This document shows positions 17,228 to 55,643 of a DNA stretch of 64,000 nt, one piece after another. The first letter of the stretch is position 1, and each line of letters starts with the position of its first letter. The position numbers and the translations under genes are program-made. Below the pieces are notes generated by a model, which worked only from the letters and a program-made list of their open reading frames with translations, had not been told where the DNA came from and made no database searches. Source of the stretch: Yuukianura sp. NJ FZ-2021 (Eukaryota); contig CM102284.1 in assembly GCA_046563655.1 (NCBI GenBank), forward strand, positions 434,001-498,000, read 5' to 3'.

Positions 17228-19004
17228 ATGTCACCACTAAACTTCACTTTCCTGGACACTCAGAAGATGGAAGTCGAAGATAGAACTGACACGAATTCAA
17301 ACGTTTCTGGAACGTATGTTGTCATTTCTAACTTGTACTACTACTAAGATATTCATGTCCCATCGTCATATGGACATCACTCATGATACTAACAAGCATT
17401 TCTTGGATTTTCAGATCGCTGAAACGGAAATCAAGGTTGGGAGTTTGCGTGGTCTGTGCAGTTGAAGAAGCAAAGTATACTTGTCCAGCATGTGAAATCA
17501 CAAGTTGCAGTCTAAAGTGTTCAAATAAGCACAAAGTGGAGAGCGGATGTGACGGAATTCGAATTCGAACTTCTTTTGTAAAACTGAATGAGTTTGGAAA
17601 CCTGCATCTTCTAAGCGGTAAAGAATTGATTAGTAGATTAATTGATTAATCTTAATCTTAATTTACTTGATTAATCACTTTTAATCTTAATTTTTTCTAT
17701 TTTATGTTTTTGTGCACAGATTATAGACTTCTGGATGACATTTCGTGTAAAGTGGATGCTTGTCGTCGTGATAAGCTGAACAAGGTTCCGACTGCAAATC
17801 ATTTCCAAAACGTAAGCCTTACTATCCTAATAACCGAAAAATCGTTACTTGAAAACTAATTAATTGAGTTAAATTTGTTAATTCAATTGATTCAGAAATC
17901 TTCCAAGCTGAAACATGCTGTGCTGTCAAGAGGTGCTGACTTTGTCATACTTCCGAATCAGTTCGCTCGTCACAGAAAAAATTACTCAGTGTTTGACTCC
18001 AGAAAGAAACAAATCTCCTGGATGGTACAACTCACATTTCTAAATGCTGCTCAACTCACAGTCTTTGAGAGGTAAGTTTTAATTCAAATCAAAGTACTTA
18101 AAGTAATTAGCTTCATAATTACTTAAATTCAAGTAATTACGTGCTAATTACTCAACTTCAATTAATTAAGTTACTAAATACTTTCGTAACATTTGTCTTA
18201 GGTGTTCAGAAGAAACGGTGCTGGAAAAATTGGTCCAGGATTGTCTGAAATCCGAAGCAAACAAACTGAAGTTCAAGAAGGTAGAAACCTACAGAAAGAT
18301 TGAGCTATCCAGCAGCACAGTTCTGTTAAAAGCAGAAAGAGTTCCAGAATCAGATAAGAAGTAAGTAATTGAGTAATTGACTGGAGTAGTTCAATTAACC
18401 GAGAATAGGAAGTAATTCCTTCTGAACTATTTCAGATTTTACAAGTTGGATATGGGGAAGAATCTGCGAGAGAACTTTATAGGGAAGACGATAGTAGAGT
18501 TTCCTCAACTCTACGTTCTAATCGACGGNNNNNNNNNNNNNNNNNNNNNNNNNNNNNNNNNNNNNNNNNNNNNNNNNNNNNNNNNNNNNNNNNNNNNNNN
18601 NNNNNNNNNNNNNNNNNNNNNNNNNNNNCGGTTGTTTTAGAAGCACCGCAGTGAAAACGAAGAATGGTACTGTCAATACTGGATCCAAATCTGGACAAAA
18701 CTGGTTGCTACCGACAACAGCAACTGCTGCACCAAAATCTACTGCCATCCGTAAGTCCAGCATCCCTGAATTGTCTTCCAGCAGTGACGAAAGCAGTGGA
18801 GAGGAACCGGATGAGTTTGCAATCCAACTGGGATCCTCTAACAAACTTCCGAGCTATCGAGACCTCGTTGGACTCAACAACAGCAACAACAACAGTAATG
18901 GCAACAACAACAGAAACGGCAACAACAGGAATAGCAACAACAACAGGAACAGCAACACTATCAACAATGACTCCAACAAGTCAGTTAGAAGAACTCAGAA
19001 ATAA
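17228..19004 (+). CDS. ZNHIT6: Box C/D snoRNA protein 1 (zf-HIT, BCD1); start at ATG 17228 or 17267; the last exon spans the N gap
   Basis: zf-HIT CVVC...AKYTCPACEITSCSLKCSNKHK..GCDG; LLS|DYRLLDD; FARHRKNYS; GKTIVEFPQLYV; introns GT-AG in frame. Confidence 0.88.
18529..18628. other. Assembly gap (100 N)
   Basis: Run of exactly 100 n. Confidence 1.
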
Positions 19005-47921: not shown

Positions 47922-49035
47922 ATGGGTCGAGTAATTCGTGCTCAGCGTAAGGGCGCCGGTTCCATTTTCGTCGCTCACACTCATCACAGGAAGGGAGCTC
48001 CCAAGTTGCGACACATGGACTATGCAGAGAAGCATGGTTACATCAAGGGAGTGATTAGGGAGATTATCCATGATCCAGGTCGAGGAGCTCCATTGGCAGT
48101 TGTAAACTTCCGAGATCCTTATAAATTCAAGACTCGGAAGGAACTGTTCATCGCTGCCGAGGGAATGTACACTGGACAATTTGTGTACTGCGGGAAGAAG
48201 GGTAAGTCATAACACCAAAACCTCAATGAATCAAAGTCCGAAGTAAAGATTCATTGCGATCATTGTATTTTACTTATTGCCATTGTTTATTTTTAGCCAC
48301 TCTCCAAATTGGGAACATCTTGCCTGTCGGAGTCATGCCCGAAGGTACGATTGTCTGCAATCTGGAGGAGAAGACAGGAGATCGTGGACGTTTGGCCAGA
48401 ACTTCTGGAAACTACGCTACCGTGATTGCCCACAACCCGGACACCAAGAGAACCAGGTAAATCCTTTCAATTTCATCATCAATCGACAGATTCAATTGGA
48501 TGTTGATGTTGCTGTGATGACCATTGATGTTCAGTCTCAGTGATGATGTAATGTAATGATCATTGATGTACACTGATGATGATATGATGAAGATCAATGA
48601 TCATCATTTTCATTGATGATGTGATGAAGATCGTAGATCATCCATTGACGAAGCTTCGTTGTGGTTTTATTTTAGTTAATTAATTTCGTCATTTACAGAG
48701 TCAAACTTCCATCAGGAGCGAAGAAAGTGATCCCTTCCAATAACCGAGCCATGGTTGGGATTGTTGCCGGAGGTGGGCGAATTGACAAGCCAATTCTGAA
48801 GGCCGGTCGTGCTTATCACAAGTACAAGGCCAAGAGGAACTGCTGGCCAATTGTTCGTGGTGTTTGCATGAACCCAGTCGAACATCCCTTCGGAGGAGGT
48901 AACCATCAACACATCGGTAAAGCCTCTACATGTAAACGTGGAACATCCGCCGGAAGGAAAGTGGGTCTCATCGCTGCCCGAAGAACTGGACGTATCCGAG
49001 GAGGAAAGAAGACCATCAAGGGAGCAGAGGATTAA
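47922..49035 (+). CDS. RPL8: 60S ribosomal protein L8 (uL2); exons 47922-48201, 48297-48456, 48700-49035
   Basis: [45 protein letters not shown] at about 49073. Confidence 0.97.
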
Positions 49036-49123
49036 GTTCTTTCTTATACGGTTACTCTTTTCTTTTTATTCTAATAAATTCTGGTATCCACGGATATGCT
49101 GAGCACCGACGAGGTATGCATGC

Positions 49124-49488
49124 TGCAACAACCCCGCAGTCCCTGAGACCGAAACTGTGATTTCCTCTACAGGGAAATCTGCAGTTCAGGTCGAATCTTC
49201 CTGGAGAGAAGATTTGACCTGAGGTCAACAATGCTTGGTTCTCCTAATGTGCCAACATCAACTGGAAAATGAAATGGTCGAGAACAACAAAGTGAACTAA
49301 TGGAATAACTTTTATTGAGATGTTCACTTGTTGAAGGTTGGGAAGAGACTCCCGCTACAGAAAATGCGAATAAAGATCTTTCTGTAACCTACACTCAGAG
49401 AACATAGTCCTCCTACTTTACCTATGCCTAACTACTCGGTTTCCTCCGGAGTTCCGAATCCGTCCCTCGTCAGTCCCTGTCCGCTTCA
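49124..49488 (-). repeat. 3' LTR
   Basis: Identical by eye to 53385-53749; AATAAA on both strands. Confidence 0.95.
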
Positions 49489-50486
49489 TATTGCGCCCGC
49501 GAAACGCGCCTCCATCAGCGCCATCTCCATGCACGGTCCTCCGACCTCGACCAGCGGATAAAATCTTCGTCTTCTTATCGTCTCGTTTCCACTCGACACG
49601 TCCAGAATTCCCACGTTTTGTCTTAAGTTTCTCCCGTTTCTTCATGTTAGTTGTTTGAGTCAAATGAATTCTGTTGACTGGACATTGTTCAAAATAGAGG
49701 TTCCGGAATTGTTTTCTTTCCAAAATATTGCTTTTCTGTCCGGTTGTTGGTTGACTTTCGGGCATTCTTGCCTGTTGTGTCCATTCGAGAAACAAATGAG
49801 TAAATCTTTGAAGTTAGACTGTTGAATTGTTGTAGGATGTAGTAACTGTCAAAACTTGTCTCTGATGTTGTTAGATGTTGATCTGCAACTCATCAGTTAT
49901 GTCAGCAATGTCTTCTTCAGCATATCGTTGTGCCAATTTGTTTTGAAGTAAAGTTGCGTTTCGACTGCTTGTCACTTCCATTGGTTTGTCAGTAAATTGA
50001 GTGTTCTTGACACTTTCGTCAGAAGTCGGCAATAATTTTGATTTCTTCTTCACTTCAACGTTTGTTTGACATTGTCGACTTCTTCTACGGAGAAGTCAAC
50101 ACCGATTTTCTCTTCAGGAAAATCAGTACCACGTTTTTACAAGTAGAAATTCTCTCTTCCGGAGAATTCCAATTTCCAATGTCCTCTACAGGGAATTTAG
50201 AGTAAATCTTTAGACTGTTTGTGCTGAATCTGGAGAGCATTTGAGATATTTAGATAAATGATTGTAAGTTTGCGCTCTAAAGTGAGGTTGTGACTAAAAC
50301 TCTGACTTAGCGGAAACTGCTTAACGTCAACGTACGATTTTCTATAGTAACGACTAAATGTACTGGACTATATTATTTCAGTACTATTAAATAATTCAGC
50401 AAAATTATAAATCTATTACATTATGATTTATACTATAATAATTTGAATATTTTCTTAACTAATGATTAATTATTATTTTGCCTTAA

Positions 50487-52064
50487 CTAATGACGTAGGC
50501 CTGCCAATGACCTATAATTTACTTGTTTTCTTTCGCGTAATTTGCTGGTAACTGCTGGACTTGTCGGAATGTCACTGGTTGCTTTCTTCTCGCGTAACTT
50601 CCTGGTAATTGGTTGACTTTTCCGAATGTCATTGTTCTTGATTTCTGACACAGTTTCTTCTCGAACAAAAAATGGTTTTAGCTCCAAAGCGTGACGTCTC
50701 CCGAATTTCTTGTTTGTGACTGGATCTGCTAACTCGTAGCTTGCGTCTGCGGTTTTTGATGTAATTTTGAAAGGGCATAGCCGTCGTTTTGAAAATTTTT
50801 GCATCATCTCATCGTCCTTTTTGGGAATTGGGTGATTTCGAATTAAGGCTACATCACCACTGTCGTATATAACATCTCGATGAGAACTGTCGTAATTTTT
50901 CTTATTTTCTTCACGTTCCTCCTCCATGTTCTCGCGTACCCATTTGATTAATTCTTGAAGTTTCTCGGGTAAACTTGTCAATTTCGCGCTTTCTTCATCA
51001 AAATTGGTGTTTCCTTTAGCTTCCAAATTTCTGTCAAACGGAAGTGGCAAATCGTTGCCTAAGTTCAAAAGGGCTGATGTAAATTTTGGTTGTGGTAACC
51101 CAGATGGTAGGGTATTGTCTGGCTTTGTCGTTTGACAAATTTTGCATGACTTGACGTAGTCAGCAGTGTCCTTATTCATTCTGTTCCAGAAACATCGATC
51201 TTCGATTTCCTCTTTTGTCTTCTTAACTCCAAGATGACCTGGCTTCGGTGCATCATGAAAAATCTTCTGAATTTCATTTTGGAGTGACGTTAGGATAACT
51301 GGAATCTTGATTTTTTGCAAAACGCGCTTCTGTTTTGACATATTGGGTTGGTTTGACTCTGGTACGATCCCTGCCGACTGAACTTGATTAGGTTCCTCCG
51401 CACTGGATGTACATTTTTGGAAACCCGGAATTTCCATTTTTTGAATTTGAGTTTCAGCTACTTTTGAGTGAACCTCGGTAGTATCTGCGAGAGAGTACTT
51501 TTTGATTCTCTTGAGCGGAATCTCGACTTGACGCTTCACTATTCCAACTTCAATTAAGAAGTGTGTACACTTGGAATTTGAAGGGTCATCACGAATCAAT
51601 TTCTTGAGACGTGAAGTTTGAATTTCATTTTCTTGATCAATTTTGATTTGGTTCGAAGTCGGTGTCTCGTAACAGAAACACACAAGGGTACAGACGATCT
51701 CTTCTGGATCGTCCGTTCCTTCAGTGTCATGACTGTCAACTGGAGCTCGTGAGAGAACGAAAATGTGTGCACTCCGTTCCGGTTTCTTTAGGATTTTGGA
51801 GATGAATAAGATTGGCCGATCCTTTCCATCTAAAGCTTGAACTTGCGCGGTGCCCAAGCTAATGTCGGATGCGTCACATTTGAGAATAATTGGAATTTTG
51901 GATTGAATTTTGATTTTTGATTGGATGTGTTTTGTCAATTGTTCTGTCATCATGCAAAACTTAGACACTGAGTCCAAGAATGCAGAAAATTTGAATTGAA
52001 TTGAAATAACTTGAGTTGTAGGTACACCTCTTGAGATTTTGTGGATTATCGGGAGAACACACAT
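50487..52064 (-). CDS. Internally deleted Pol-like ORF (RNase H N-terminal part, integrase HHCC zinc domain, GPY/F-like region; no RT or DDE core seen)
   Basis: ILKCDASDISLG..DRPILFISKIL (RNase H start); FHDAPKPGHLGVKKT..FWNRM..VKSCKICQ (HHCC); KFSKRRLCPFKI (GPY/F-like). Confidence 0.8.
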   Translation of the reverse strand: MCVLPIIHKISRGVPTTQVISIQFKFSAFLDSVSKFCMMTEQLTKHIQSKIKIQSKIPIILKCDASDISLGTAQVQALDGKDRPILFISKILKKPERSAHIFVLSRAPVDSHDTEGTDDPEEIVCTLVCFCYETPTSNQIKIDQENEIQTSRLKKLIRDDPSNSKCTHFLIEVGIVKRQVEIPLKRIKKYSLADTTEVHSKVAETQIQKMEIPGFQKCTSSAEEPNQVQSAGIVPESNQPNMSKQKRVLQKIKIPVILTSLQNEIQKIFHDAPKPGHLGVKKTKEEIEDRCFWNRMNKDTADYVKSCKICQTTKPDNTLPSGLPQPKFTSALLNLGNDLPLPFDRNLEAKGNTNFDEESAKLTSLPEKLQELIKWVRENMEEEREENKKNYDSSHRDVIYDSGDVALIRNHPIPKKDDEMMQKFSKRRLCPFKITSKTADASYELADPVTNKKFGRRHALELKPFFVREETVSEIKNNDIRKSQPITRKLREKKATSDIPTSPAVTSKLRERKQVNYRSLAGLRH

Positions 52065-52100
52065 CGAGGTGGTTATTGGTGTCTCCCTTGGGAGTTTAAA
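52025..52100 (-). promoter_or_regulatory. -1 programmed ribosomal frameshift signal (U_UUA_AAC + H-type pseudoknot)
   Basis: Heptamer in phase with ORF1; 6-nt spacer; stem 1 GGGAGACAC/GUGUUCUCCC; stem 2 CACCUC/GAGGUG; the -1 frame is the Pol-like ORF. Confidence 0.8.
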
Positions 52101-52510
52101 TCTGGTTTCTGATTGGTACTCTCGGCATCATTTTGTTCATTAACTTGACTCGATTCTGGAATGCGAACGTAATCTGCTCCACTCGGTACAGCACGTGAAC
52201 TGGATTGACCAGAAGCCGTAGTGCGCATGCCTGTTGTTGCTGTTGGAGCTTGGGTTGTGATAGTTGAAGCAGTAGATGAGACGATAGGGACTTGGTTTGC
52301 TACAGTTCGTTGAACAACGGAACTTGCATCTGAACTTCCATTTGAGTAATCATCTTCATCTACTGGATTTTGAATTTGCATGTCACTTTCAACATCATCA
52401 TCATCAATTGGTTCTTCAGGAATTTGATTTATGTTTTGTCTGTCCATGTTAAATCCTTGTAGGAATGCACGAGAGTTTCGATCCAAATCTCTCACTTCCC
52501 TTCTGCTCAT
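52073..52510 (-). CDS. Short ORF1 in the gag position (145 aa, low complexity)
   Basis: First ORF after the 5' UTR; it overlaps the Pol frame at a slippery heptamer; no capsid or zinc-knuckle motif recognised. Confidence 0.55.
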   Translation of the reverse strand: MSRREVRDLDRNSRAFLQGFNMDRQNINQIPEEPIDDDDVESDMQIQNPVDEDDYSNGSSDASSVVQRTVANQVPIVSSTASTITTQAPTATTGMRTTASGQSSSRAVPSGADYVRIPESSQVNEQNDAESTNQKPDLNSQGRHQ

Positions 52511-53384
52511 TAGTTAATACTGGAAACGAAATTCTCTACGGGAATTTCAATTAGCCAGTTAACTGAGTTAGTTTTTAGGATTCTGTTTGTTTTAATTGGT
52601 TTTGAGATGGTCTTGGTGTCGATGCTCTCTTCAGGACCTTCAACTCCACGTTACAACTTGTTCCTCTCCTTGAGTTTTTGATTTCCTCTACAGGGAAATC
52701 TAAGTATTTGGTAATTTTTGGAAAATCGGGCAGCACCCGTGCGTGATTTCGAATTTTTGAAATTTTTTGGGCAGCACCCGTGCGTAATGTTTGATTTTGG
52801 AATTTTTGGCAGCACCAGTGCCTTTATTTTATGTAGGGGTTGTTATATGAATCTCTTCCTTCTTTTAATTTGGCATCAAATGGACAATGAACGATTTTCT
52901 CTACAGGAAAATCGGTTCAGTCTATCGAAAAATCTCTTCAGGATTTTTCAAAATGAGCGACGAATTGCTCTCTGTCCTTTGGTTTGGTGTCCTTGACCTC
53001 TGAACTTTTCTCTACGGGAAAATTTCAAAGTGTTTGAATTTTTGAAAAAATCGGGCAGCACCCGTGCGTGAAAACGATTTTTGGAAAATTTTTGGCAGCA
53101 CCCGTGCCTTTATTTGACCTTTGACCTGACCCGTCTTTTCTCTACCGGAAAATACAGGTAGGTTGTTGATTTATTCCAATGCTGGATTGCTTTTCTCTAC
53201 AGGAAAATCAATCAGCTGGTAGGTCAGAATTTCCTCTACAGGGAAATTCTCATCGGTTTATCTCGTCTCCTTCTTCAGTTGTCTTCAATTGAGCCTTTCT
53301 CTACAGGAAAGTCTCACTTGACCTCTTGACCTTTCATTTCAGTTGAGAACATGACATCACTGGAATGATCCCTTCGGCCGCCAC

Positions 53385-53749
53385 TGCAACAACCCCGCAG
53401 TCCCTGAGACCGAAACTGTGATTTCCTCTACAGGGAAATCTGCAGTTCAGGTCGAATCTTCCTGGAGAGAAGATTTGACCTGAGGTCAACAATGCTTGGT
53501 TCTCCTAATGTGCCAACATCAACTGGAAAATGAAATGGTCGAGAACAACAAAGTGAACTAATGGAATAACTTTTATTGAGATGTTCACTTGTTGAAGGTT
53601 GGGAAGAGACTCCCGCTACAGAAAATGCGAATAAAGATCTTTCTGTAACCTACACTCAGAGAACATAGTCCTCCTACTTTACCTATGCCTAACTACTCGG
53701 TTTCCTCCGGAGTTCCGAATCCGTCCCTCGTCAGTCCCTGTCCGCTTCA
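53385..53749 (-). repeat. 5' LTR
   Basis: Adjacent to the PBS-like sequence at 53367-53383. Confidence 0.95.
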
Positions 53750-53990
53750 ATGCATAACTTTTTCATGAAGCCAAAAAAGTTAAAGGTCAGCCTCTGCAAA
53801 TCCTCCAGGACTTTCTGGGCTTCATCGAACAAAGTTAAAATCAATTTGTACAAAAAGTTTGAGTATTAGAAGTTAGCAGTATTTAAGCCTCCCTTTTCCA
53901 GAATTTGGCAGTAGTTGTTCATCCTTCGTCGCTTGGTGAAGGTGGATCCATCCAGAAAAACTCGAATTATTTGAAGATTTTTAACAAAAG

Positions 53991-55643
53991 ATGAGTTACA
54001 GTGGTGGCTACAATGGTGGCTACATGCCACCACCTTATCCACCCGGTGGCTACGGCTATCCACAGTGGGGTCCACCAAATCCATTTACGACTTCGTTCCA
54101 AGCATCGCTCCAACCTGGAGCCAGTCGGTTCGGAAACCAAACCGTGGTGGACAAAGTTCCAGCAGAGATGTTGAGTCTCATAGATCCTCATTGGTACCAA
54201 TTCCCTCCGATGAATCCTCTGTGGCACTCGATTCTGGGTGTTGCCATGACGATATTCGTCATTTTGTCGCTCGCTGGCAACGGAGTCGTCCTGTCCGTCT
54301 TCATGTCAACCAAATCCCTGCGCACTCCAGCCAATCTCCTGGTGGTCAATCTCGCCTTCTCTGACTTTTGCACCATGTTGACCATGGGAATTCCAATGAT
54401 CATCAACTGCTACTACGAAACATGGATTTTCGGTAAACCATGAATCATAACTTAACTTGAGTTGATTAATCATGATTAACTTACCTTGGATATGTTAGGT
54501 CCACTGATGTGTGAAGTTTATGGAATGCTGGGGTCACTCTGGGGGTACCTTTCAATTCACTCCATGGTTCTCATTGCTCTGGACAGATACAATGTCATCG
54601 TCAAGGGTTTTGCCTCAAAACCACTCACCACAAAATCCGCCATTTTGAAAATCCTCCTCACGTGGTTCATCGCTCTCGTCTGGACAGTCATTCCACTTTT
54701 CGGCTGGAACAGGTAAGTGCAATGCCCAATATGCAAGCAATGTATTCCTCAAGGTTCGTAAACAAAATAGTTTTTTCTTCAACAGGTTAGCCAATAACTA
54801 GAACTTTTTAAATTTTTAAACGTTTTGGACAGATACGTTCCGGAAGGGAACATGACATCTTGTGGACTGGACTATCTGAACAAGGATTGGTTCTCACGGT
54901 CCTACATCTTGGTCTACGCATTCTTCGTCTACTTCCTTTCTCTGTTCACTATCATTTATGCTTACTACTTCATTGTCAAGGTATGTATGCAGTTTTCAAA
55001 ATTTCGAAAGAAAAAAAATCAAAAAAAAAAAATTCTGAAAACTCAACCTGGTTTCCAATTCCAGGCCGTTTTTAGTCACGAGAAACAAATGCGGGAGCAA
55101 GCTAAGAAAATGAATGTAGCCTCTTTCCGTCAGAACCAATCCGACGAGACCAAGAAACAGTCTACGGAAGCTAAACTCGCAAAGGTAATTAAGTAAACTA
55201 ACCTTAATCAAGTAAACTAAACTTAATCAACTAAAAACTCAATTAACTACTCATTAGCACTATCCGTTTATCCTTAGATTGCTTTGATGACGATCAGCCT
55301 TTGGTTCCTGGCTTGGACTCCCTACCTCGTCATCAACTTTACCGGAATCTTCGAACCATCCAAGATCTCTCCACTGGCATCAATCTGGGGCTCAGTCTTT
55401 GCTAAAATGGGCGCCATTTACAACCCAATTGTCTATGCAATCAGGTACGCCTTACTCACAACTCTAATTAAAGTTAATTAATTCCTCAATTAATCAATTA
55501 ATTGATCCTTTAGTCACCCCAAGTACCGTGCTGCTCTGCTCAAGAAGTATCCTTGCCTGGCCTGTGCCACGGAACCACCGGAATCAGACATACTTTCCCA
55601 AACATCGAATGTCACCAAGGCTAACCTCGAGGAGACGGCCTAA
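53991..55643 (+). CDS. Long-wavelength-type rhabdomeric visual opsin (6 exons)
   Basis: [69 protein letters not shown], retinal-binding Lys in [18 protein letters not shown]. Confidence 0.96.

Follow-up and report, generated by a model that had tools for sequence, protein, structure and literature searches.

Defective retroelements such as mouse VL30 and barley BARE2 are said to keep the packaging signal (Psi) and to borrow Gag, and to our knowledge no Psi is built from a repeated hairpin with an invariant heptaloop. In retroviruses and long terminal repeat (LTR) retrotransposons, Psi consists of cis-acting hairpins in U5 and the leader near the primer binding site, with unpaired purines or guanosines for Gag or its nucleocapsid domain (NC); unpaired purines and guanosines are preferred by retroviral Gag/NC (PMC13736810). 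In plus-strand RNA viruses, packaging can rely on repetitive structural motifs, i.e., several stem-loops with free stems and a common loop motif, for which copy number matters; examples are eight stem-loops with GGG tips in alphavirus nsP1 (PMC5869531) and arrays of stem-loops with a common loop motif in coronavirus packaging (PMC8206606). For the Metaviridae, the RNA features by which Gag chooses a genome are undefined even in yeast Ty3, whose packaging depends on sequences of the untranslated regions (UTRs) or POL (PMC4974528). Here we describe an array of covarying stem-loops with a conserved heptaloop, C-N-G-W-A-G-A (W, U or A), which is confined to a non-autonomous Ty3/gypsy retrotransposon of the arthropod Yuukianura sp. 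NJ FZ-2021. The element occupies positions 49124-53749 of the minus strand (4.6 kb, internally deleted) in the window, i.e., the whole 64-kb stretch of DNA analysed (contig CM102284.1, positions 434,001 to 498,000), to which all coordinates refer.

The array shares with Psi the placement of hairpins in U5 and the leader near the primer binding site and the unpaired purines and guanosines of the loops; unlike in Psi, one small module with an invariant heptaloop recurs about 17 times and is found also in pol and in the 3' UTR. With the repetitive motifs of RNA viruses it has in common several stem-loops, stems of free sequence and a common loop motif, whereas those motifs, from plus-strand RNA viruses, form a cluster in one region and have unrelated capsid proteins as their readers. 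By analogy, the array appears to resemble Psi or a viral repetitive structural motif, and it is a member of no curated family. A literature search for arrays of this kind in LTR retroelements, or for the loop words, found no description, most subscription journals being outside the search.

The whole window was scanned for 7-nt loops (TCTNCNG/CNGNAGA) flanked by at least five Watson-Crick pairs. Seventeen hairpin instances passed, none of them outside the element. The minus (sense) strand carries CNGNAGA in fifteen of them (plus-strand loop starts 49166, 50084, 50111, 50155, 51700, 52535, 52687, 52900, 52935, 53011, 53141, 53196, 53235, 53300, and 53427) and two, one per LTR, are inverted (loop starts 49201 and 53462; 15-bp stem with one G.T). 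Loop words carrying such a stem numbered 17 of 33 within the element and 0 of 136 in the other 59,373 bases, and dinucleotide shuffles of the element (n = 500) gave a mean of 0.014 hairpins and a maximum of 1. Each LTR holds two of the passing hairpins, the 3' UTR three, the pol open reading frame (ORF) one, the 145-aa ORF none and the leader nine, in which a stem of 5 bp or more accompanies 9 of the 11 loop words. Another two copies, decayed in the present element, retain the loop on a mismatched stem (loop starts 50185 and 52628). When LTR duplicates are counted once and decayed copies are included there are 17 distinct copies, 16 sense-oriented and one inverted, and the sense-type sites also number 17. 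The module measures 21-31 nt and has five fixed loop letters. A covariance model built from the 17 distinct copies recovered these training copies and the two LTR duplicates (19 hits, E ≤0.005, as expected by construction) and nothing elsewhere in the window (best outside hit 17.1 bits, E 0.09), and BLASTN of the element against the remainder of the window gave no match.

The initial annotation of this DNA, made from the letters without database searches, had reported an array of about 15 such hairpins in the LTR element, and the census bears out both the array and its mainly non-coding placement in U5, leader and 3' UTR. Fourteen of the 15 sense hairpins listed there pass the 5-bp test, while the one at 50178 has two mismatches here; the list had missed the pol copy (51700) and the decayed copy at 52628. 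Since the former lies in the 525-aa pol ORF, the claim that ORFs are free of copies does not stand, whereas its counterpart for host DNA does (0 of 136 loop words stemmed outside the element), and the motif is not equally frequent in host DNA, where equal frequency had been named as a refuting outcome. The loops given were all correct, with CAGAAGA to be added, and the oppositely oriented 15-bp hairpin with loop CUGGAGA was found in each LTR as described.

For the analysis of loop conservation and stem covariation the 17 distinct copies were aligned without gaps and 12 flanking pairs were scored per copy, giving 204 cells. The loop letters C1, G3, A5, G6 and A7 are invariant in all 17 copies, 16 of which close with C-G. 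At position 4 there is U in 11 copies, A in five and G in one (the inverted LTR copy, read on the plus strand), and position 2 is U in 10 of the 17. The loop is purine-rich on the motif's own strand only, C-N-G-W-A-G-A having at least four purines among its seven letters on the sense strand. Paired cells amounted to 84.3% of the total compared with 59.6 ± 2.4% when the 3' arms were dealt among the copies (0 of 500 shuffles reached the observed value), partners slid along the arms paired in just 35-54% of cells, and the covariation score was 0.701 compared with 0.231 ± 0.034. Both sides vary in 11 of the 12 pairs, stem position 4 showing U-A, A-U, G-C and C-G, and more than 10 different stem sequences occur among the copies, in agreement with the earlier observation that the stems vary yet stay paired. 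Two paralogous leader modules (52660-52835 and 52985-53125, ~79% alike) have hairpins in which stem position 2 is C-G in one and U-A in the other, a compensated change, and four copies share a 5-bp stem and an A.G mismatch followed by four to six more pairs of unrelated sequence. The arms match their own partner and not a common half-site, and a plain dimeric DNA-site model is therefore rejected. A reading of the 3' arms as polypurine tracts was also ruled out, the purine arm being on the 5' side in some copies.

The wobble pairs add a strand polarity. Stem positions 1-10 hold, as read on the motif's own strand, 10 G.U and no A.C pairs, and 8 of the 17 distinct copies, in both orientations, have the G.U at stem position 8; the C-A mismatch that becomes U.G on the other strand, remarked on earlier for the 50074 stem, is thus correct and part of a wider pattern. 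By our own estimate the A-rich composition of the sense strand would if anything favour A.C. For 16 of the 17 distinct copies the favoured strand points to the element's sense RNA, as the initial annotation had proposed. With the covariance model the inverted LTR hairpin scored 34.7 bits on the plus and 12.0 on the minus strand. Folding energy provides no strand choice, as the hairpins fold on both strands, with a z-score that is lower on the plus strand (-4.61 vs. -2.33 on the minus strand, 20 shuffles each). At stem pair 3 the pairing probability in local sense context reaches 0.8 or more for 13 of the 17 sense-type sites; for the two decayed copies it is 0.53 and 0.00. Considering the covarying stems together with the wobbles on the motif's own strand, we regard it as very probable that the module is a hairpin selected in a single strand. 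Rfam returned no match at E up to 1 for positions 48900-53900 on both strands; whatever their function, the hairpins are a new structured-RNA family absent from that database.

The carrier has the TG..CA LTRs, the 4-bp target duplication, the primer site beginning with TGG and the order reverse transcriptase (RT)-RNase H followed by integrase with an H2C2 finger that characterize Ty3/gypsy elements (Metaviridae), from which it differs in being a non-autonomous deletion derivative. Both LTRs are 100% identical at an offset of 4261 and the direct repeat ATGC flanks them at 49120-49123 and 53750-53753. A sense-strand AATAAA starts at 53577 in the 5' LTR (49316 in the 3' LTR), which places both LTR hairpins in the inferred U5. 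No tRNA genes were found in the 64-kb window. In the 525-aa ORF, Pfam matches to Integrase_H2C2 (E 3.9e-17) and RT_RNaseH (26.4 bits, the start of RNase H) were obtained, and alignment with full-length relatives showed that this pol remnant lacks protease and the integrase core and has lost the greater part of both RT and RNase H; a 57-nt tandem duplication (1.9 copies, 83% match) lies late in it (50523-50631). An ORF of 115 aa at 49418-49765 matched no family or relative. The single CCHC knuckle of the relatives of this clade, found upstream of pol in 7 of the 8 relatives examined, is absent from every sense frame of the element, which therefore needs a helper. The element was described as defective before, and indeed gag with its knuckle, protease, RT core and integrase core are all absent. 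As the identical LTRs mark the copy as recent, we conclude that a Ty3/gypsy element gave rise, by deletion, to this young non-autonomous carrier.

Other genomic copies were followed in four DNA sequencing runs (X1-X4) of two organisms, in which the element family is present at many times the depth of the flank, and the 40 best-supported of 610 differences were listed. Six of these 40 changes touch hairpins. With 50181 G>T and 50196 T>A, which hold throughout the contig depth of X1, X3 and X4, all 7 bp of the 50185 hairpin are formed; 52701 T>A lengthens the stem at 52680-52700 by one pair, 50169 C>T turns the wobble of 50146-50170 into A-U, and 50160 C>T hits the free loop position 2 of the same hairpin. 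The sixth, 50077 G>C, would break pair 7 of 50073-50101 unless its partner, which is not among the 40 listed, has changed as well. No change of an invariant loop letter occurs among the 40 best-supported differences, a weak result, as ~0.7 would be expected. The other copies thus mostly keep or improve the pairing. The 50185 hairpin variant of the window (50099-50301) and the right flank (53750-54000) are matched without differences only by contigs of X2, and the runs of the other organism differ by ~4% in the flank yet carry the family at high depth. Contigs from other copies diverge from the element in loose ends at 52117-52129, inside the 145-aa ORF, which we read as the deletion breakpoint, and contain a 217-letter insert at 51756-51761; both hint at longer, less deleted copies.

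The nearest full-length relatives are proteins of metagenome contigs with at most 41% identity. In 48 metagenome loci with a related pol (at most 53% identical) the exact hairpin scan found no sense-type and one weak opposite-type hairpin, the covariance model gave a single hit (E 0.086), and tBLASTn with the 145-aa and 115-aa ORFs as well as BLASTN with the non-coding parts gave no matches. A search for any repeated-loop hairpin family revealed nothing comparable in the 12 closest of these loci. The array is therefore an innovation of this element's family. Viral contigs searched with a 17-letter core pattern gave 17 single matches, about chance by a rough estimate, and no arrays, and none of the matches was in a tRNA gene. 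One viral contig (L052:977-1209) contains three core matches 108 nt apart in which the covariance model has no hit, probably a tandem repeat unrelated to the motif.

Our preferred, though tentative, interpretation is that the array is a reiterated Gag/NC-binding packaging signal, predicted here from sequence and structure, which Gag-less derivatives use. The module would be a helix of any sequence with a C-G closing pair and the purine-rich heptaloop, repeated across U5, the long leader, one pol site and the 3' UTR and presented by the sense RNA in 16 of the 17 distinct copies. Its most likely reader would be the Gag or nucleocapsid of autonomous members of the same family, presumed to have a single CCHC knuckle like the relatives in the clade. 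Each loop would offer an unpaired G and A to the knuckle, the many copies would provide avidity, and jointly they would form a dispersed, redundant and perhaps dimer-forming packaging signal. A deletion derivative that has lost gag and retains the hairpins could then be packaged in trans, as we propose for this element. The array shows several features of such signals. U5 contains one sense-type and the inverted copy and the leader 10 copies, to which pol adds one and the 3' UTR four; unpaired purines and guanosines are found in the loops, with the 13 of 17 sites mentioned above predicted to fold; and several stem-loops combine a common loop motif with variable stems, as in a repetitive structural motif.

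A number of observations weigh against a packaging signal in the sense RNA. Four copies lie in the 3' UTR, whereas known retroviral packaging signals sit in the leader. The covariation comes from paralogues within one element and not from orthologues, the shuffle control ignores their kinship, and the finding rests on one element family. When all 12 flank positions are included the wobble asymmetry weakens to 14 vs. 5 (p = 0.064), with flank positions 11-12 probably outside the helix, and five U.G copies with common flanks may represent one inherited event, so that the independent wobble events would be fewer than 10. For the inverted LTR copy both wobble and loop lie on the plus strand, which a reader of sense RNA leaves unexplained; this copy could act in an antisense transcript or in minus-strand DNA, or it could stem from a recent inversion in which the wobble was moved with the hairpin. 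In its sequence context, folding of the U5 sense copy is predicted to be rare (0.01-0.03). We attribute this, from reading the sequence rather than from a computed result, to a competing helix (53385-53440, also 49124-49179) in which the downstream CAGGGA pairs with the 5' arm and loop of the hairpin; the competitor forms in a fold that truncates the adjoining 15-bp hairpin, and it may serve as a switch in the leader. Of an autonomous partner with its Gag the only signs are the loose ends and extra letters of the contigs, which hint at longer copies. Finally, this array was not found in the 48 related elements, nor one with another loop in the 12 closest of them, hence it is not a habit of the whole clade.

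The enrichment, covariation and strand evidence would be the same if the heptaloop were read by an RNA-binding protein of the host that docks on the hairpins and serves nuclear export of the unspliced RNA, stability, localisation or translation. Retention of the array in a Gag-less copy is expected equally in that case, and the 3' UTR and pol copies suit a signal at the mRNA level at least equally well. Other retroelements reportedly have export or transport elements, such as the constitutive transport element of Mason-Pfizer monkey virus and the RNA transport element of intracisternal A-particles. However, no known host motif fits the heptaloop, as Rfam gave nothing and Smaug fails at G4 (see below), and the leader-heavy spread (10 of the 17 RNA sites) is more typical of packaging or dimerisation regions. 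The absence of copies from 59 kb of host DNA with several genes also argues against a host reader, though weakly, as ~0.2 copies would be expected by chance. On balance we consider docking of a host protein possible but rather unlikely.

A direct RNA contact is improbable as the purpose of the loops. The long inverted hairpin of U5 exposes on the sense strand the loop UCUCCAG, which is complementary to CUGWAGA at six of seven letters, all but the centre, and might kiss the sense loops, of its own or of another genome, in cyclisation or dimerisation; Ty1 reverse transcription uses a 7-nt complementarity between the 5' end and a site downstream of the primer binding site (PMC4974528). Yet none of the 16 sense copies has G at position 4 (11 have U and five A), which leaves the central pair always mismatched, the six of these copies that depart from U at position 2 (with C, G or A) show no compensation, and the A.C mismatch in the U5 helix on the sense strand would be unexplained.

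Similarly little weight is given to a function in duplex DNA, with the conserved 9-bp core as a site for a host protein and the array as a leader enhancer or insulator. Repeated DNA-level protein sites are reported from the leaders of insect retrotransposons, namely Su(Hw) sites in gypsy and dyad repeats in copia, and resemble the array in that a short motif recurs many times in the 5' untranslated leader of a Ty3/gypsy-type element of an arthropod. The array also adjoins perfect direct repeats of the nuclear-receptor type AGGTCA, and one copy is inverted, as is usual among DNA sites. In contrast to the gypsy and copia sites, which are duplex DNA without covarying flanks, the flanks covary here and the wobbles are strand-specific. 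A duplex site needs no complementary flanks of free sequence, whereas the arms match within copies far more than from copy to copy (0 of 500 shuffles), and a strand-specific G.U pattern would be meaningless in duplex DNA. The AGGTCA repeats themselves, spaced by 1 and 2 nt, are perfect on the sense strand (53115-53127, 53319-53332, 52994-52999), the density of half-sites overall being not clearly above that of the window; they suggest that the leader probably acts as DNA too, as a hormone-responsive enhancer. A second leader motif, GGCAGCACCCGTGC (plus strand), occurs in five copies, one with a single change, and nowhere else in the window (52729-52742, 52770-52783, 52808-52821, 53054-53067, and 53094-53107). 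A 4-bp stem with a 7-nt loop is possible in two of these copies and pairing is lost in the other three, so that this motif looks like conserved sequence rather than structure.

Segmental duplication in non-coding parts could have spread a palindromic unit and left a young array without function, and the duplicated modules of the leader, the LTR identity that marks the copy as recent and the two decayed copies would all agree with this. Duplication cannot, however, yield more than 10 different stems that are all paired around an unchanged loop, it does not explain the pol copy, which is made from codons, and the other genomic copies keep or improve pairing; we therefore hold this origin to be quite improbable.

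The initial annotation had pointed to a likeness with the recognition element of Smaug/Vts1, for which PMC4053848 gives the consensus loop CNGGN0-3 with G4 invariant and no contact of Smaug to the letters corresponding to A5, G6 and A7. The resemblance lies in a hairpin with a non-specific stem (here 7-nt loops, within the 4-8 nt expected, on more than 10 stems), fixed C1 and G3, a free N2 and often several copies per RNA, and the inverted LTR copy (CUGGAGA on the plus strand) is a formal CNGGN3 match. Membership is nevertheless very unlikely and we drop it for the array, since position 4 is U or A in 16 of 16 sense copies and the 3' half of the loop is fixed.

It is equally far-fetched that the hairpins mimic tRNA anticodon arms and serve as ~16 decoys by which a synthetase, a modification enzyme or another protein that reads tRNA would be recruited or sequestered. 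The letters of CUGUAGA and CUGAAGA are those of the anticodon loops (positions 32-38, unmodified) in animal tRNA-Tyr(GUA) and tRNA-Phe(GAA), respectively, four copies have exactly five pairs and then a purine-purine mismatch as atop an anticodon stem, and human immunodeficiency virus 1 reportedly uses a tRNA-like element near its primer site, of which the decoys would be a much-multiplied version; an anticodon arm would have an invariant U as the second letter of its 7-nt loop and a 5-bp stem, whereas the hairpins share the loop length but have that U in just 10 of 17 copies, and 13 of 17 helices exceed 5 bp. A hammerhead ribozyme was rejected because the box CUGANGA fits only the four CUGAAGA loops among 17 and there is neither a helix II nor an Rfam match. 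MicroRNA seeds and sites for Pumilio (UGUA) or Musashi (UAG) were ruled out by the variation at positions 2 and 4 and the requirement for a stem.

If the hairpins do constitute a packaging signal, the element would be the first retrotransposon with a reiterated stem-loop 'address code' as in some RNA viruses, and it would show how Gag-less derivatives remain mobile. It is a legible natural candidate for the features that direct genome choice in Metaviridae, as a module of this size with five fixed letters and about 17 copies reduces the question to simple binding tests. Should a host protein read the motif instead, it would be a new RNA recognition element in arthropods.

Table 1. Parts of the retrotransposon and its hairpin copies, listed along the sense strand (CM, covariance model).
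Feature	Position	Strand	Remarks
5' LTR (element sense)	53385-53749	-	365 nt, TG..CA
Inverted LTR hairpin	53447-53483	+	loop CUGGAGA, 15-bp stem, G.U wobble on plus strand; duplicate 49186-49222
U5 hairpin, 5' LTR	53420-53440	-	loop CUGUAGA, 7 bp; duplicate 49159-49179; pairing probability 0.01-0.03 in sense context
Candidate primer binding site	53366-53383	-	TGG begins one base past the 5' LTR; read from the sequence
5' leader	52511-53384	-	874 nt; 10 motif copies, one of them decayed
Leader hairpin	53290-53316	-	loop CUGUAGA, 5 bp + A.G + 4 bp
Leader hairpin	53226-53250	-	loop CUGUAGA, 9 bp
Leader hairpin	53185-53213	-	loop CUGUAGA, 5 bp + A.G + 5 bp
Leader hairpin	53129-53159	-	loop CGGUAGA, 5 bp + A.G + 6 bp (one G.U)
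Leader hairpin	53001-53027	-	loop CCGUAGA, 5 bp + A.G + 4 bp; positional paralogue of 52680-52700
Leader hairpin	52925-52951	-	loop CUGAAGA, 8 bp + G.U + 1
Leader hairpin	52892-52914	-	loop CUGUAGA, 8 bp
Leader hairpin	52680-52700	-	loop CUGUAGA, 7 bp; one pair longer in other copies (52701 T>A)
Decayed leader copy	52618-52644	-	loop CUGAAGA, two internal mismatches; CM 32.7 bits; pairing probability 0.00-0.02
Leader hairpin	52527-52549	-	loop CCGUAGA, 7 bp + G.U
145-aa ORF	52073-52510	-	low-complexity sequence; matches no family and none of the 48 related loci
525-aa pol remnant	50487-52064	-	RT thumb, RNase H start, integrase zinc finger, integrase C-terminus
pol-ORF hairpin	51690-51716	-	loop CAGAAGA, 7 bp + G.U + 2 bp; CM 33.4 bits; pairing probability 0.99-1.00
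3' UTR	49489-50486	-	4 motif copies, one decayed here
Decayed 3' UTR copy	50178-50198	-	two mismatches here; perfect 7 bp in other genomic copies
3' UTR hairpin	50146-50170	-	loop CGGAAGA, 7 bp + G.U + 1
3' UTR hairpin	50099-50129	-	loop CUGAAGA, 7 bp + G.U + further pairs; CM 39.9 bits on - vs. 15.4 on +
3' UTR hairpin	50073-50101	-	loop CCGUAGA, 7 bp + G.U + 3 bp; sole copy with U-A closing pair
3' LTR (element sense)	49124-49488	-	identical to 5' LTR

An assembly gap of 100 N is located at 18529-18628 of the window. The element starts 88 nt past the stop codon of the gene for ribosomal protein L8 and ~45 nt past the AATAAA of that gene (49033-49124), and 241 nt beyond its other end (53749-53991) lies the start codon of an opsin of the long-wavelength type, whose best named relatives are insect opsins with 55-72% identity. 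Being inserted between the two genes, the element may affect both.

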